Positions 3,740 to 59,512 of a stretch of DNA of 64,000 bases are shown here, in pieces. The stretch is taken from positions 156,544-220,543 of the forward strand of contig WJJZ01000010.1 of assembly GCA_014729395.1 (NCBI GenBank), given 5' to 3'. Under the pieces are notes generated by a model. It did not search any database. It saw only the letters and a list, made by a program, of their open reading frames with translations, and was not told where the DNA came from. This DNA is from Candidatus Magasanikiibacteriota bacterium (GTDB lineage: Bacteria > Patescibacteriota > Patescibacteriia > Magasanikbacterales > UBA922). The first letter of the stretch is position 1, and the number at the start of each line of letters is the position of its first letter. A program made the position numbers and the translations under genes.

Positions 3740-4744
3740 TCAAGAGCTTTTTAGTTTCATCTTTACATAATCCCAATAAAAATTATTTTCTTGTTTTTCC
3801 TTCATCCAATACCACCATTCAACACCCCATAGGTATGCTCTGGGTACTCCAATTCTTTCTACATATCTAAAATGTTTAATTAATCTCTCTGTATTCATGG
3901 TTTTTTCTTGCTCCTCTATCGGAGTATGAAGGGCTCCTCCATTAGTAAACCATGGTTCGGCTTGGAGTTCGGAGACAATGACATTATCCATATCCTTGTC
4001 GTACAACTGCGCTTTCAAGCGATAAACCGAGGGTGGTAGCCAATTATAAGAAAAAACCACACCTTTGTATGCGCGAACGACACGATATAAAGTGGTACCA
4101 AAAATATCTCCGGCATTAATGGCTTGACGCCATGTACTTAACTCTCCGCTGTCTGTAATCAAAATCTTTTTATTACCATCGAGCAATTTAACCAAATCGA
4201 TTTCATCATAGACCAAATCTTCTCGGTAATTGTCACACTCACCAAATCTAAATTTAATAAAAGGTTCATTCTCCACCTGCCACAGTTCCAAAGCCGGGTG
4301 ATTTTTGTATCTTTCCACTACTTTGGCAATATATGATAACAATCTGGTTCTATACTGTTCTTCATTCAAATTTTCTACCCAGTCCGGAACGTGGCACTCG
4401 GGCCAGCGCGGAGCTTTTTGACCTAGAACCAAAGTTATTTTGGTATCATTTTCAGCCGCTTTGTCCATCATCCAATCAACCTTGCTAAAATCGTAATACC
4501 CTCTTTCCGGTTCAATCTCACTCCACATGGCGGCTATTCGCACATACTCCGGTTCCAAAGATTCCAGCATGTCAATATAAACTTTTTGCCAATCCAATTC
4601 CAATGATTCAGCTTGGTATTGATTGTAACTAATGCCGTATTCGACATTATATTCTTTGCGGCTTATAAGCCATAAGAATAAATAAAACAATACTATTATA
4701 AATAGTATGATTGCAATAATCATAATAATTTTATTTTGCTTCAT
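3740..4744 (-). CDS. Membrane-anchored glycoside hydrolase, clan GH-A TIM-barrel-like (GH5/GH42-like)
   Basis: N-terminal TM helix; ELWQVENEP motif (NEP catalytic-acid signature of clan GH-A) and a second conserved acidic region; family not assignable by eye. Confidence 0.45.
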   Translation of the reverse strand: MKQNKIIMIIAIILFIIVLFYLFLWLISRKEYNVEYGISYNQYQAESLELDWQKVYIDMLESLEPEYVRIAAMWSEIEPERGYYDFSKVDWMMDKAAENDTKITLVLGQKAPRWPECHVPDWVENLNEEQYRTRLLSYIAKVVERYKNHPALELWQVENEPFIKFRFGECDNYREDLVYDEIDLVKLLDGNKKILITDSGELSTWRQAINAGDIFGTTLYRVVRAYKGVVFSYNWLPPSVYRLKAQLYDKDMDNVIVSELQAEPWFTNGGALHTPIEEQEKTMNTERLIKHFRYVERIGVPRAYLWGVEWWYWMKEKQENNFYWDYVKMKLKSS

Positions 4745-4779: not shown

Positions 4780-5724
4780 CTAATCACCTTGTGTAAAATA
4801 AGCGGTAAAATAACTGGTGGAATTTTTTATATTTTGCTGTAAATATTTACCGGAATTACTATGACGGATAATATTTAAATCACTGGCCCCAAGCATGTCC
4901 ATGGTTTTTAATAAAACAATTAAGGCTGCCGGTGCATCAATATAAGTATTATCAAACATTAAAATTTGGCTGTAAGCGCGATTTTCAATTGCGTCCCAAG
5001 TTATTTTATCCATATCAACTGATTCATCCGGGGTCAAATAATGTGAAAAATCAAAAGATCCAATGACCAAAACTTCATCGTTGCCGGAATATTCAGCCAG
5101 TCTGTCCGCTAATTTCTCCATGTCACTAATTTCTTTATTACTTAATATAACCAACGGAACTATGTCGGCTTTTGGAAAATAATATGAAACGAAAGCCACT
5201 GTGTTTTTAATGGAGTGTTCGGGAATAAAATTTTCATTATCATAAGAAACCAAACCACTAGCGACTAATTCATCGATAATAGTATAATTATTTTCTACCA
5301 CCCCAAACGGAGTCCGCCAATCCACTCGACCGCTAATAACATCATCCACGCCTTGACCGATGTGATTTGGTCCCAAAATAATTATGGTTTTTGGGTTTTC
5401 AGTTTCTTTAAGTCGAGAAAAGAATTCTGCAATATAATCTGAAACCAAATCATGATGAGGAATTATTCCACCATAAACTTTTTTATCTTTTTCTTGATAT
5501 GTTTTTTCACCGTTCTCTATGGCTGAATAAAACAATTCCCAGTTATAATCCAATTCAACTGTCTCCGCATACGGTTCGCTGTTAGAAAACACCGGACTAT
5601 GTTCATCTTTTATCTCAGTCAACATCTGTTGCTTGTAAAATATCAACAAAAAAATCACCACCAGACCGACAAAAGCGATGGCAGTGATTTTTAAGGTTTT
5701 AGATTGTCCGGTCTTATTCAACAT
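4780..5724 (-). CDS. MEMO1-family protein (AmmeMemoRadiSam system protein B-like) with N-terminal membrane anchor
   Basis: Motifs IPHHD, LGPNH, PEHSIKN, SFDFSHY match the MEMO1 family His/Asp metal-site motifs (PHAGY / GPSH / EHS / SDxSH). Confidence 0.55.
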   Translation of the reverse strand: MLNKTGQSKTLKITAIAFVGLVVIFLLIFYKQQMLTEIKDEHSPVFSNSEPYAETVELDYNWELFYSAIENGEKTYQEKDKKVYGGIIPHHDLVSDYIAEFFSRLKETENPKTIIILGPNHIGQGVDDVISGRVDWRTPFGVVENNYTIIDELVASGLVSYDNENFIPEHSIKNTVAFVSYYFPKADIVPLVILSNKEISDMEKLADRLAEYSGNDEVLVIGSFDFSHYLTPDESVDMDKITWDAIENRAYSQILMFDNTYIDAPAALIVLLKTMDMLGASDLNIIRHSNSGKYLQQNIKNSTSYFTAYFTQGD

Positions 5725-20967: not shown

Positions 20968-21040
20968 TGCAGGCGCGGTAGGAATCGAACCCACGACAAG
21001 AGTTTTGGAGACTCCTGTGATACCACTTCACCACGCGCCC
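20968..21040 (-). tRNA. tRNA-Trp (anticodon CCA), G73 discriminator, CCA not encoded
   Basis: Hand fold: acceptor GGGCGCG/CGCGCCT, D arm GTGA-AGTGGTA-TCAC, anticodon stem GGAGT/ACTCT with loop CTCCAAA, T arm GTGGG-TTCGATT-CCTAC. Confidence 0.8.
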
Positions 21041-21043
21041 ATG

Positions 21044-21292
21044 TTATTTGTATTTTAATCTTTTCATTAAACCTGTGTAAGCCGAGCCATATTGTTTCAA
21101 TTTCTTTTCACGTTCTTTAGCTAATTCTTCAACAATATATGATTCATAATAAATTAATTCCAACGGCCGTCTATATTTGGTTGACTTAACTTTCCCATCT
21201 ATATGATTTTTTAACCTTAATCTCAGATTGGATGTAAAACCTATATAAAACTTACTATCTTTTTTACTTTTTAAAATATATACATAAAACAT
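21044..21292 (-). CDS. GIY-YIG nuclease family protein (small stand-alone GIY-YIG domain)
   Basis: YVYILKSKKDSKFYIGFTSNLRLRLKNH = canonical GIY-x10-YIG with the R and N; 82 aa. Confidence 0.85.
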   Translation of the reverse strand: MFYVYILKSKKDSKFYIGFTSNLRLRLKNHIDGKVKSTKYRRPLELIYYESYIVEELAKEREKKLKQYGSAYTGLMKRLKYK

Positions 21293-21303
21293 AATTATCT
21301 ATT

Positions 21304-21379
21304 GTGGCGGTAGGAATCGCCCCGCCCTTCGCGAAGGGCGGGGTTGGAGACTCCTGTGATACCACTTCACCACGCGCCC
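21304..21379 (-). pseudogene. tRNA-Trp-derived pseudo-tRNA: exact copy of nt 1-37 of tRNA-Trp, a 24-nt perfect GC palindrome, and a copy of the tRNA 3' part (CGATTCCTACCGC)
   Basis: 36-nt identity to tRNA-Trp up to the anticodon loop, then CCCCGCCCTTCGCGAAGGGCGGGG, then the T-loop/acceptor 3' fragment; the acceptor stem can no longer pair. Confidence 0.7.
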
Positions 21380-21491
21380 ATATAGCTATCAGTTGACAGA
21401 CTTCAGCTAATACTACCAAAATAAAAGCTGAAGTCCGAAGTCTAATAACTGATTGCTAATTTTACACCATTTCTCCCAAAAAATCAACCCA

Positions 21492-38461: not shown

Positions 38462-38630
38462 ATAAAAAAAGTCGGCTACATTAGCCGCCCCGGGGTCTCA
38501 ACCGATTAACAGGTTGAGACGGTTCCACCCGCAGGTTTCACTCTTGTTAATTGTCTACTCAACTCCAAGGTTGCCAAGACCTTTTCATCGTTGGGTATAT
38601 TAAATATACCTTATATATATATTTTGTCAA
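38462..38630 (-). promoter_or_regulatory. Probable glycine-specific T-box riboswitch leader with its promoter, upstream of glyQS
   Basis: Minus strand: TTGACA-16nt-TATATT promoter; stem I region with specifier GGC followed by A (cttGGCAacc); T-box-like GGGTGGAACCG (UGGA would pair with NCCA of a U73 tRNA-Gly); terminator CGGCTAATGTAGCCG + U7 just before the start codon. Confidence 0.5.
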
Positions 38631-39631: not shown

Positions 39632-40243
39632 TTAATAATAATTATCCTTTTCCCAATTTTTTGGATTATGCCTGATATACCAACGGATCTTATTTAATTC
39701 CAATTCATTTCTGACAATTCGATCATGGAATCTGGACTGCCAGGCAAAATGATTTTGACCAAATTTTGAATTGATTCGTTTTCTGGCAGCCGATTTAAAC
39801 CCGCGAATGATTGATGCTAAATTGTGGGATTGTGATCCGAATTTGTTTGGGATCCAATTTTGTTTACCTCGTTGTAGAGACGCGCAGCAGCGCGTCTCTA
39901 CGGTGTGCGTATCGTCTTGCGATGTTTGAGCGCAGCAGCGCGTCTCTACGTCATTATCATCATTTTTATTAATAATAACAATTCCGTGAATGTGATTCGG
40001 CATAACAACAAATTCATCCAAAATAACATACGGCCTGATCATGGTCGTATTTTTCCATTCATCATAAACAATTTTTCCAATTTCTGACAATTTAATTCTA
40101 CTATTTTCAATTTCGCCAAAATAACAAAAATTTTTTTTCGTACAAATAGTCACAAAATAGGCCGCGTCTTTGCCATAGTCCCACCCGCGCAGTCTGGTAC
40201 TGGAAATTCTGTATTTATTTCTAAATAATGGTCCGCTTGACAT
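39632..40243 (-). CDS. REP-associated tyrosine transposase-like (RAYT / IS200-IS605 Y1 HUH family) protein, carrying an in-frame GC-rich palindromic insertion
   Basis: HUH motif MPNHIHGIVII; WQSRFHDRIV and catalytic-Tyr region IRWYIRHNPKNW align with E. coli RAYT IWQPRFWEHAIR...DYIYINPVKHG; 203 aa. Confidence 0.7.
   Translation of the reverse strand: MSSGPLFRNKYRISSTRLRGWDYGKDAAYFVTICTKKNFCYFGEIENSRIKLSEIGKIVYDEWKNTTMIRPYVILDEFVVMPNHIHGIVIINKNDDNDVETRCCAQTSQDDTHTVETRCCASLQRGKQNWIPNKFGSQSHNLASIIRGFKSAARKRINSKFGQNHFAWQSRFHDRIVRNELELNKIRWYIRHNPKNWEKDNYY
39874..39949. repeat. GC-rich 28-nt perfect palindrome GTAGAGACGCGCAGCAGCGCGTCTCTAC plus a 20-nt direct repeat of its right half 48 nt downstream, inside the RAYT-like ORF
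   Basis: Direct reading; encodes a duplicated VETRCCA peptide in frame. Confidence 0.8.
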
Positions 40244-43347: not shown

Positions 43348-44496
43348 TTAGCATATTTTTTCTTTTTTAACAATCACACCCAAAGTATCTGAGGCACATT
43401 TCTGCCAAGAAAATTTTTTTACTCTTTCCAAACCCAAAACTACCTTTTCCTCTCTTAAATTATTATCATCTAAAAATCTTTGTATGGTGGTGGCAATAGC
43501 GTCGATATTTGATGGATCTACATAAAGAGCCGCCTTTCCGGCCACCTCATTCAAACTAGACTCATCGGCAGTCACCACCGGCGTACCACAGGCCATGGCT
43601 TCCAAAACCGGTAAACCAAAACCTTCATACAAACTTGGAAAAACAAACAACTCGGCCGCATTCATCAAATAAGGCAGATCTTGCTCGCTTACCCAACCCG
43701 GCTGAATAATATCATCTTTATACTGACTGGTCCGGATTACTTGGGCAACTTTTTCGTAGCCAAAACCGGGACTACCCACAAGGAGTAATTGGAGGCTGGT
43801 GGCTGATGACTGAAGATTATTTTTCTGTTTGATAATTTCAAATGCCTTAACTATATTCACAGTATTTTTTTTCTCTTCCAGTCTACCAACTGACATCACA
43901 AATGGCTTTTTTACCTTATATTTTTTTAATATCTCTACAATCTTTTTTTCATCGTCAATTACTTTGTATTTTTTATCATAACCGTGTTTAATAATAAAAA
44001 TTTTATCATCCGGTCTCCGGTCTCCAGTCTCCAGTCTCTCTAATTCTTTTTTCGTAAAACCAGAAGGAGTAATAATTTTCCATAGAGTATTTAAAGCGTG
44101 CTTGGCCGACCAAAGCGAATACCATCTTTCGAACCAATTAAAAGATTTGGGGTATTTTGCCGCTGCTACATCATGTACGGTCATAATCGTTTTTTTGGGG
44201 TGGACAATGGGAAAGACATGAGCGGGAATAAATAAAACATCCGGAGGATTTACAAACATTTCCCAACTCAATCTTATCTGTGTCCACAGCCTTTTAGGGG
44301 GCCAATGTAGAACTTTTTCTTGCCAATTTACCGGCATTTCAGACAGTTGTCCCTGTAAAGGTTTATCAGTGTATAAAACAACCCGAACATTCTCGGGTAT
44401 ATTTTTTTTTAATTCCTGAATAAGCTGAAAAGCATAGCATTCCACACCGGTTTTTTGTAAATTGTTTGCACGAGAGGCATCTATACCTATAATCAT
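43348..44496 (-). CDS. Glycosyltransferase family 4 (GT-B, glycosyl transferases group 1)
   Basis: VGRLEEKKN ... EGFGLPVLEAMACGTPVV E-x7-E motif. Confidence 0.85.
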   Translation of the reverse strand: MIIGIDASRANNLQKTGVECYAFQLIQELKKNIPENVRVVLYTDKPLQGQLSEMPVNWQEKVLHWPPKRLWTQIRLSWEMFVNPPDVLFIPAHVFPIVHPKKTIMTVHDVAAAKYPKSFNWFERWYSLWSAKHALNTLWKIITPSGFTKKELERLETGDRRPDDKIFIIKHGYDKKYKVIDDEKKIVEILKKYKVKKPFVMSVGRLEEKKNTVNIVKAFEIIKQKNNLQSSATSLQLLLVGSPGFGYEKVAQVIRTSQYKDDIIQPGWVSEQDLPYLMNAAELFVFPSLYEGFGLPVLEAMACGTPVVTADESSLNEVAGKAALYVDPSNIDAIATTIQRFLDDNNLREEKVVLGLERVKKFSWQKCASDTLGVIVKKEKIC

Positions 44497-44507
44497 AAAT
44501 AATAATG

Positions 44508-44705
44508 CGAATATACGCCTGCCTGCCGGCAGGCAGGGATAATTCAGATTTACGGATCGTTTAGTCTATAAACCAATAAAATATTTACTATCAACTGTCT
44601 GTATTAATAGAAGTCCTTTATTTGTTAATGATACACTGGACTAACACCAATCTATCCTAAAATCCGCACCTGCCTGCCGGCAGGCAGGTTATCCGTATAT
44701 CCGTA
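44508..44705. repeat. MITE-like element bounded by two identical 20-nt perfect palindromes CCTGCCTGCCGGCAGGCAGG (44518-44537, 44669-44688) with about 10-nt inverted flanks (CGAATATACG / CGTATATCCG)
   Basis: Direct reading; GC-rich palindromes in an AT-rich intergenic region between mreB and the GT4 gene. Confidence 0.6.
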
Positions 44706-44710
44706 TCGTA

Positions 44711-45718
44711 TTATTTTGTAGCCAAAACACTTCTTTTGTAGCTATCCAGGTTTTCCAGAGCCACTCCGGTTCCTTTAGCGACACATAAAAGCGGCTCATC
44801 AGCAACATAACAAGCGACTCCTGTGGCCTGAGCTATAAGTTCATCAAGATTTCTAAGCTGTCCGGATCCGCCGGACATTATAATCCCTTTATTCATCACA
44901 TCTGCCGATAGTTCAGGCGGTGTTTTGTGTAATACGTCTTTTATAGCCTGTACCAATCCTTCCATATCATGTTGTAGCGCCTCTGTGGTATCATCTGAAC
45001 TGACCTTTACAATTCTGGGCAGGCCGGTAATCATGTCCCTGCCTTTGACATCCATTTCCAAGGGCTTATTCATAAACATAGCCGAACCAACAGTTATTTT
45101 TACTTGTTCGGCAGTTCTGTCACCAATTGCCAAATTATATTTTCTGCGAACATACTCGGCTATTGAGGTATCAAACCTGGTTCCACCTATTCTTACCGAC
45201 CCTACGGAAACGATTCCGCCCAAAGATATTACGGCGATTTCAGCGGTACCCCCACCAATATCGATTATCATGTGTCCTGATGCGCTTCCAATCGGAACGT
45301 CTGCTCCTATCGCCGCTACTATTGGTTCTTTTATAATATAGGCTGCACGCGCTCCGGCAGCCATTGCAGCATCAATAACCGCTCTTCTTTCCGTAGAAGT
45401 TATACCCGCGGGTACGGCCACCATAACTTCCGGCCTAAAAAGCCTAACAGCGCCTAATGCACGATTTATAAAATACCGCAGCATTGATTCCGTAGTCTTG
45501 TAATTAGCTATCACTCCGTCTTTAAGGGGACGCTCGGCAATTATCGTATCCGGGGTTCTACCAATCATTTCCTTTGCTTCAGAACCAACTGCCAAAACTT
45601 TTTTATCATCTTTGGATATTGCCACTACGGATGGTTCGTTTACTACAATTCCACGCTTCGGTAAATAAACCAAAACATTTGTTGTTCCCAAATCAATTGC
45701 AACTTTTTTTATTAACAT
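44711..45718 (-). CDS. mreB: Rod-shape-determining actin homologue MreB
   Basis: DLGTTNVLVY ... phosphate 1/2 and adenosine motifs of the actin/Hsp70 fold; 335 aa. Confidence 0.9.
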   Translation of the reverse strand: MLIKKVAIDLGTTNVLVYLPKRGIVVNEPSVVAISKDDKKVLAVGSEAKEMIGRTPDTIIAERPLKDGVIANYKTTESMLRYFINRALGAVRLFRPEVMVAVPAGITSTERRAVIDAAMAAGARAAYIIKEPIVAAIGADVPIGSASGHMIIDIGGGTAEIAVISLGGIVSVGSVRIGGTRFDTSIAEYVRRKYNLAIGDRTAEQVKITVGSAMFMNKPLEMDVKGRDMITGLPRIVKVSSDDTTEALQHDMEGLVQAIKDVLHKTPPELSADVMNKGIIMSGGSGQLRNLDELIAQATGVACYVADEPLLCVAKGTGVALENLDSYKRSVLATK

Positions 45719-58870: not shown

Positions 58871-59512
58871 ATGAGTAAAATACCTCTAATCATCAGTGCC
58901 GGTGGTACCGCCTCCGGAAAAACCACTCTGGTAGAGGCCGTTGTTAAAATGCTGGGCCCGGAAAAATGTACAGTAATTTGTCAGGATTGGTACTACAGAG
59001 ACCATCCCGAAAAAACCGCTGAAGAATTAAGTCAACTCAATTATGATCATCCCGGCGCATTTGAAGAATCTTTACTGGTAGATCAGATAAAAGCCCTCAT
59101 ACAAAATAAAATCGTTTTTACTCCTCGTTATGACTTCCGTACCCATCGTAGAAAACCACAAAGAGTGGAGACTGCTCCGGCGCAAGTTATTATTCTCGAG
59201 GGTATACTAGCTCTCACAATAAAAGAGTTGGTTGATCTGGCTACCTTTAAAATCTTTGTGGAAACTGATGACAGTATTCGCCTCCTGCGCCGCATGGAGA
59301 GAGACATGGCCGAACGAGGTCGTACATTCGAACAAGTAAAGCAACAATGGGTTGAGACGGTTCAACCAATGTATTTACAATTCTGCTTTCCATCAAGGCG
59401 TTTTGCAGACATTACCGTCCACCACGGGGGTAAGAATCCAATTGTCCTCCAGATGCTTCAAAAATTATTTGGAGAAATGGCGACCAATGGTCTTCGAACC
59501 ATGGTTGCATAA
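58871..59512 (+). CDS. udk: Uridine kinase (PRK/uridine kinase family)
   Basis: P-loop SAGGTASGKTT, DxYY... lid region; 213 aa. Confidence 0.75.
   Translation: MSKIPLIISAGGTASGKTTLVEAVVKMLGPEKCTVICQDWYYRDHPEKTAEELSQLNYDHPGAFEESLLVDQIKALIQNKIVFTPRYDFRTHRRKPQRVETAPAQVIILEGILALTIKELVDLATFKIFVETDDSIRLLRRMERDMAERGRTFEQVKQQWVETVQPMYLQFCFPSRRFADITVHHGGKNPIVLQMLQKLFGEMATNGLRTMVA

Follow-up and report, generated by a model that had tools for sequence, protein, structure and literature searches.

The gene under study lies on the reverse strand at positions 39632-40243 of the window, that is, of the whole 64-kb stretch of DNA that was analysed, and it is an intact open reading frame (ORF) of 203 residues with the features of a RAYT gene resembling TnpA-REP subclass 2.4. 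A hypothetical protein from a Candidatus Magasanikbacteria MAG has the same sequence as its product (100% identity), and 6207 homologues of the product were found in the database (E ≤ 0.001). The HUH motif, N83-H-I-H86, is encoded at 39986-39997 (codons AAT CAC ATT CAC), the pair W168-Q169 at 39737-39742 (TGG CAG), and the catalytic tyrosine motif, Y189-I-R-H-N-P194, at 39662-39679 (TAT ATC AGG CAT AAT CCA), all of them on the reverse strand; the protein ends 9 residues past the last motif. These residues were examined in an alignment of 33 sequences, the window protein included (alignment A1). Thirty columns were invariant and they carry the HUH, WQ and tyrosine residues, among them H84, H86, W168, Q169, Y189, I190 and N193. 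The RAYT gene comes after frr and dtd, which have the same orientation, the gaps being of 2 and 6 nt, and glyS is found nearby, which makes for a housekeeping-like context. The gene is a domesticated HUH/tyrosine transposase, present as a single copy in the window, where a second copy was absent by tblastn.

When a profile of 33 family members was compared with the PDB, the sole sequence match was E. coli TnpA-REP (4ER8), and the similarity was a distant one (E 1.6e-07). The H-motif of 4ER8 (PEHMH), W94-Q95, R104 and Y115 aligned without gaps with H84/H86, W168-Q169, R178 and Y189, respectively. W168-Q169 is in this way the counterpart of W94-Q95, which in the E. coli enzyme belongs to the region that recognizes GTAG (PMC6006769). 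The first-pass annotation of this DNA had described a RAYT-like HUH transposase with HUH and tyrosine motifs, and had foreseen that these residues might prove to be misaligned; the ORF, the NHIH, WQ and YIRHNP motifs and the predicted fold confirmed the description, and the residues are in register with those of 4ER8 and invariant in A1.

Between the HUH and the tyrosine motifs, at 39874-39901, there is a complete "double foot" REP. It is formed by a perfect stem of 12 bp, GTAGAGACGCGC / GCGCGTCTCTAC, and a non-palindromic centre of 4 nt, AGCA, so that the whole can be laid out as GTAG-AGACGCGC / AGCA / GCGCGTCT-CTAC; the specific centre of this copy is GCAGCAGC. The REP is located in an uninterrupted ORF and is translated in frame as VETRCCASLQ. 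None of 100 dinucleotide shuffles of the window contained such a hairpin, which upholds the GC-rich inverted repeat reported earlier between the two motifs; the same report had taken it for a perfect palindrome of 28 nt, and this has to be corrected to a 12-bp stem with the AGCA centre. The 48-nt in-frame duplication that had also been reported turned out to be a partial second REP at 39930-39950, an exact direct repeat of 21 nt (of 39882-39902), 48 nt being the spacing between the two. Read in the coding sense, the partial REP consists of a left arm and the loop, followed by only 4 nt of the right arm. The first VETRCCA of the loop peptide is read from this DNA, the whole REP-derived peptide being VETRCCA...VETRCCASLQ, and at the protein level only VETRCCA recurs. 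The GC content, previously given as about 70%, was 61% over 39874-39950, compared with 33.5% in the rest of the gene and 36.4% in the window. The partial copy most likely originated when DNA at the hairpin was duplicated locally, through slippage or through an aberrant event of cleavage and rejoining.

Considered as single-stranded DNA, the REP region folded with -26.1 kcal/mol (z = -4.4). It was also possible to see, in the minimum-free-energy fold of 39874-39949, that the orphan arm at 39938-39949 pairs with the distal arm of the REP at 39874-39885; this alternative pairing gives a 12-bp stem around approximately 50 nt in place of the local hairpin. Rfam and ARAGORN gave no match at the hairpin or at the other palindrome sites of the window, which are described below.

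The core of the AlphaFold model of the protein had a pLDDT above 90, and the top 30 PDB matches obtained with Foldseek were, without exception (30/30), Y1 transposases, either IS200/IS605 TnpA or TnpA-REP. On the basis of this model, the protein is predicted to have the Y1 HUH fold. The family profiles gave lower scores. NCBIfam NF047646 (REP_Tyr_transpos) matched in two stretches with 53.8 bits and E 1.8e-14, below the curated cut-off of 80 bits of this equivalog model, a result that shows relatedness and not equivalog-level membership. Pfam PF01797 (Y1_Tnp) reached 19.5 bits against a gathering cut-off of 23 and covered the C-terminal half only; precomputed matches to PF01797 are present on many close homologues. 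Both scores are low because a variable loop splits the domain into two stretches.

Taking these scores together with a REP population that is not visible in the window, it could be proposed that the gene is an inactive relic, the hairpin and its partial duplication being signs of decay. We consider this very improbable, since the frame of 203 aa is intact, the HUH, WQ and tyrosine residues stand in the 30 invariant columns of A1, the core is modelled with confidence, and the low scores are attributable to the splitting of the domain by the loop.

The identity of the gene as an insertion sequence of the IS200/IS605 type was also considered. IS200/IS605 elements have a YxxxQ signature, occur as multiple near-identical copies, carry subterminal hairpins at both ends and often include tnpB. 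The window protein shares with IS200/IS605 TnpA the fold and the catalytic chemistry, but its signature is YxxxNP; the gene is a single copy in the window with no tnpB-like neighbour and no subterminal hairpins as element ends, and it is placed among frr, dtd and glyS, with housekeeping genes abutting it. We rejected this candidate. Also related are E. coli TnpA-REP (4ER8; subclass 2.2, RAYT group 2) and the group 3 enzymes (PMC8266576), with which the Y1 HUH fold is common, as would be the use of a GTAG-footed hairpin as substrate, a putative one in the case of the window protein. The E. coli REP, however, has a bulged stem and a single foot, whereas the REP of the window has a perfect stem and a double foot, and the E. 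coli gene has REPs on its flanks and none inside, with a short link from the HUH motif to the next helix.

The palindrome is not particular to this gene. Almost all the homologues in A1, which come from Patescibacteria, Bacteroidota, Nitrospirae and KSB1, have VETxxxASLQ or RDTxxCVST at the same place, and both peptides correspond to one DNA template, GTAGAGACGC-N8-GCGTCTCTAC, read in two phases. The palindrome is encoded by 100 (87%) of the 115 closest homologues that have an HUH motif, as VETxxxASL in 88 and as RDAxxxVST in 12 (with up to 1 mismatch), and extra partial copies like that of the window gene were found in 33. Eighty metagenome loci were then chosen by protein patterns located outside the loop, and an in-gene REP was called when there were up to 3 mismatches in the 20 fixed bases. 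By this measure 43 of the 80 loci (54%) contain an in-gene REP, in one to three copies each; the other 37 include members without any palindrome. The 48 in-gene copies of these loci were distributed among the reading phases as 36 : 12 : 0, and in the phase that is never used GTAG would introduce a TAG stop.

The REP-derived DNA is contained in a variable loop (39860-39958 of the reverse strand, approximately residues 96-128) that connects the HUH strand with the NKFGSQ helix. Residues 93-141 were modelled with low confidence, and residues 101-125, which are encoded by the palindrome, had a pLDDT below 50 (approximately 45-50), so this REP-encoded loop is predicted by the model to be disordered. 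The distance from the HUH motif to the N.FG.Q motif was 20-65 aa in those of the 120 top homologues (the window protein is counted in the 120) that had the two flanking motifs, 100 in all. Six of the metagenome members (L134, L148, L158, L159, L175 and L183) have approximately 10 residues from the HUH strand to the NKFGPQ helix and no palindrome, and these insert-free members retain all the conserved motifs.

Two other members, L135 and L168, have REP-coded peptides (SETRSIASLR and PETQSIASLR) in a different loop, in the N-terminal third of the ORF after a conserved FGEIE, so that the family has a second site where insertions are tolerated. Considering the insert-free members and the inserts at the second site, the REP segment is an insertion relative to a minimal architecture and was acquired more than once. 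A recent, lineage-specific insertion was rejected, because most homologues have the same palindrome at the same loop. An ancestral segment that was never inserted was likewise rejected, given that insert-free members exist and that two members use the second site. The first-pass annotation had expected an alignment with homologues to place the insertion in a loop and had considered that all of them might share the segment; the comparison bears out the former, with short-loop members that lack the insert and a loop that is predicted to be disordered, and for the same reason the segment is not common to all homologues.

We then looked at the distribution of the template outside the family. In a scan with one genome per species, exact matches to it were found in at least 120 genome stretches. 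Among the matches listed, the phyla were Bacteroidota, Cyanobacteria, Chloroflexi, Acidobacteria, Planctomycetes, Proteobacteria, Spirochaetes, Zixibacteria, Cloacimonadota, Gracilibacteria, Moranbacteria, Parcubacteria and others. Also among the matches listed, 115 of the 132 exact palindromes were in loci (mostly of 8 kb) without a RAYT-like gene, while 7 were inside a RAYT gene and 9 adjoined one. Where a RAYT gene is present, copies are often found just upstream and just downstream of it, in the REPtron arrangement, and the in-gene copy and the flanking copy had the same 8-nt centre in 15 of 22 loci, shared defects included. An array was seen in a Paludibacteraceae locus (L038), where seven near-perfect REPs are placed in tandem at 5197-5575, with a spacing of approximately 57 nt, downstream of the RAYT gene; an additional single copy is located upstream of the same gene.

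The centre of the hairpin was compared among 64 distinct copies. Positions 11-18 and 12-17 form Watson-Crick pairs in 91% and 95% of them, respectively, with three to four types of pair, and in shuffled controls the values were at most 62% and 53%. In the arms, the double changes were compensatory in 11 cases of 11. The hairpin is constrained, with an 8-nt centre that varies and yet remains self-complementary, and the palindrome is a true dispersed REP.

It could be thought that the element conserved here is the peptide, VETxxxASLQ being maintained for the function of the protein and the DNA palindrome being a by-product. The peptide does recur in most homologues and at the same place. Nevertheless, 12 of the 48 in-gene copies are read in a second frame as RDAxxxVST, most occurrences of the identical DNA are outside RAYT genes, and the model predicts disorder for the encoded segment; the palindrome has a centre that varies and stays self-complementary, and its V, E, T, A, S and L are not freely encoded by synonymous codons, the arms being fixed as DNA. 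We rejected conservation at the protein level on the two reading frames and the extragenic copies, and we give this explanation almost no credence.

Many REPs are species-specific (PMC3733652), and the presence of an identical 10-nt foot, GTAGAGACGC, in many phyla is unusually broad conservation for a REP. No discussion of this identity across phyla was found in the RAYT and REP papers examined. The identity suggests a conserved recognition code for the group 4 enzymes, to which, as is discussed below, the window protein very probably belongs.

No other hairpin with a GT[AG]G foot was detected in the 64 kb of the window, nor any flanking or dispersed copy of the in-gene REP, the 1 kb on either side of it included. 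The near-matches to the REP arms were 27, compared with 27.8 in shuffles, which is the chance rate. Signs of an active REP population are missing from the window. In the RAYT/REPtron system, whose description is attributed to Nunvar in 2010 and to Bertels and Rainey in 2011, cognate REP or REPIN copies are reportedly dispersed in the genome; no extragenic copies of this type were found in the 64 kb, and elsewhere, in the genomes of other organisms, the palindrome does occur dispersed at sites outside RAYT genes. Approximately half of the long related contigs are also without flanking copies, while many related loci have them. In L121, L128, L131 and others, the in-gene copy is the only one within the contig (10-64 kb for the window and these contigs).

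TnpA-REP subclass 2.4 of the TnpA-Y1 family was described by Quentin, Siguier, Chandler and Fichant in 2018 (PMC6006769) and corresponds to RAYT group 4 of Bertels et al. 2017 (PMC5581495). Its motifs are NH[IFV]H, WQ and YIxNNP, the last being a MEME consensus and not a strict rule, its median length is 194 aa, and there is an insertion of variable length and sequence between β3 and αC (PMC6006769). The REPs of this subclass are "long" or "double foot", of the form 5′ GT[AG]G ... C[TC]AC 3′, they are found inserted in frame between HuH and Y, and the large majority of the genes have REPs within approximately 1 kb on either side (PMC6006769). The window gene shares with the subclass the NHIH motif, which fits NH[IFV]H, the WQ pair and the YxxxNP signature, a length of 203 aa (about 200) with no C-terminal tail domain, a low copy number, the variable β3-αC insertion, the double-foot GTAG...CTAC REP and its position in frame from HuH to Y.

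Taking all of this into account, we are confident that the window gene is an ordinary member of TnpA-REP subclass 2.4 (RAYT group 4). Against this assignment it can be said that no other REP was found in the window, that the curated cut-offs were missed, and that the tyrosine motif is YIRHNP, which agrees with YIxNNP in five of six positions and has H in place of the first N. The absence of flanking REPs within 1 kb, and of any in the 64 kb, likewise sets the gene apart from most of the subclass, as does the host, a MAG of Patescibacteria (Magasanikbacteria), a phylum that is not named in the 2018 text (PMC6006769).

The earlier proposal of a REP-like hairpin carried in frame and tolerated by a RAYT gene agrees with the published description of subclass 2.4 (PMC6006769). 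The case had been presented as unusual, and in this respect the proposal has to be revised, given that an in-gene REP is the norm for the subclass: the trait was published in 2018 as one of its hallmarks, and the locus is a new example of it from Patescibacteria, which by itself has little weight beyond adding this host to the subclass. No relevant paper was found in a search of the literature for RAYT together with Patescibacteria, a search for the palindrome sequence itself gave unrelated primer matches or nothing, and no biochemical work was found on any group 4 enzyme. GTAG REPs and intragenic REPs were catalogued by Di Nocera et al. 2013, who cite the intragenic repeats RPE-1, RPE-4 and RPE-6 of R. 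conorii (PMC3733652). With intragenic REPs in general the locus has in common a palindromic repeat that is in frame and is translated as extra residues of a loop; it differs from them in that the host gene is that of the cognate enzyme and in that the same loop is hit across the subclass.

By analogy with the enzymes of groups 2 and 3, the RAYT protein would bind the folded single-stranded REP through the GTAG foot and the hairpin. It would then cleave at a nearby dinucleotide (CT or CA) with a 5′-phosphotyrosine intermediate and could transfer the strand, giving rise to new REP copies, as in the cleavage and transfer mechanism of the group 2 and group 3 enzymes (PMC8266576). Copies that arrive in or near their own RAYT gene would survive only if the frame is kept and the loop is dispensable. 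With a small genome and the only visible substrate inside the gene, the locus may be a simple test case for domesticated group 4 enzymes.

A prevalence of 87% at a single loop exceeds what simple neutral tolerance predicts. Given this prevalence and the identity of the foot across phyla, there is a modest chance of functional selection on the in-gene copy. In that case the in-gene palindrome would be a cis element, not merely tolerated, which could act as a "master copy" or as an autoregulatory hairpin; in the autoregulatory version, the hairpin in the single-stranded DNA or in the mRNA of the gene would be bound by the RAYT protein itself. Several observations agree with such selection: the palindrome is kept in 100 of the 115 close homologues, proteins that are approximately 50% identical and whose loops are otherwise unalignable, the 10-nt foot is the same across many phyla, the changes are compensatory, and in the window and in L121, L128, L131 and others the in-gene copy is the sole one within 10-64 kb. 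Other observations do not. The insert-free members keep all the conserved motifs, L135 and L168 have their inserts at the second site, and only 54% of the loci selected by protein carry an in-gene REP. Moreover, an in-gene copy is usually like the copies that flank it in its own genome, idiosyncratic defects included, which fits turnover within a REP population. On balance we consider selection of the in-gene copy unlikely. It is similarly doubtful that the gene carries a master copy in the proper sense, in which a substrate hairpin placed in a dispensable loop would make the REP and its RAYT one heritable unit. If it were so, this unit could persist and, once transferred horizontally, could re-seed a REP population, even in a Patescibacteria genome that is streamlined and shows no extragenic copy in 64 kb, and the retention at the same loop in approximately 87% of the close homologues, with an identical foot and with changes in the hairpin that are only compensatory, would be explained. 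The ordinary membership in subclass 2.4, with the REP as an in-frame insertion in a variable loop, is the reading that we prefer.

The first-pass annotation had also noted GC-rich palindromes at 21320, 44518 and 44669, and had taken them as an indication of an active or recently active REP/RAYT system. The palindromes do exist, and it is their relation to the in-gene hairpin that does not stand, because they have no sequence in common with it and no GTAG foot. We rejected their inclusion in the same REP system, and they give no support to an active one, the first being inside a broken tRNA gene and the other two belonging to a different family.

Upstream of glyS, where the intergenic region separates divergent genes, there is a hairpin at 38495-38520, GTCTCAACCGATTAACAGGTTGAGAC. 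The arms of this hairpin are similar to those of the REP swapped in order, with one change in each, and its 10-mer GTTGAGACGG recurs at 59351. This hairpin was considered as a degenerate REP junction, a candidate that was set aside, near-matches to the REP arms being at the chance rate in the window.

The palindromes at 44518-44537 and 44669-44688 are two copies of a perfect 20-nt palindrome, CCTGCCTGCCGGCAGGCAGG, 151 nt apart from start to start. They are placed between an ORF of 382 aa (43348-44496) and one of 335 aa (44711-45718), which by eye we take to be glycosyltransferase-like and MreB-like, respectively. An identical 20-mer was found in the metagenome contig L121, at 4397-4416, inside the 5′ end of a HicB-like ORF and approximately 600 nt upstream of the RAYT gene of this contig, whose RAYT-like protein has a match with the annotation Patescibacteria group bacterium. 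CCTGCCTGCCGGCAGGCAGG, which lacks a GTAG foot, may represent another family of conserved palindromes.

The remaining palindrome, at 21320-21343, is perfect, GC-rich and 24 nt long (CCCCGCCCTTCGCGAAGGGCGGGG), and it is located inside a broken copy of tRNA-Trp(CCA) on the reverse strand (21307-21381). The first 36 nt of the broken copy are identical to those of the intact tRNA-Trp gene, which is on the same strand at 20969-21040. The palindrome stands where the 3′ anticodon stem, variable loop and 5′ T stem would be, and it is followed by the T-loop and acceptor 3′ sequence. Between the two tRNA-Trp copies, also on the reverse strand, there is a GIY-YIG ORF of 82 aa (21044-21292; Pfam E 8.8e-16), and the arrangement has the appearance of a small cassette with a nuclease gene, by which a part of the target tRNA was duplicated.
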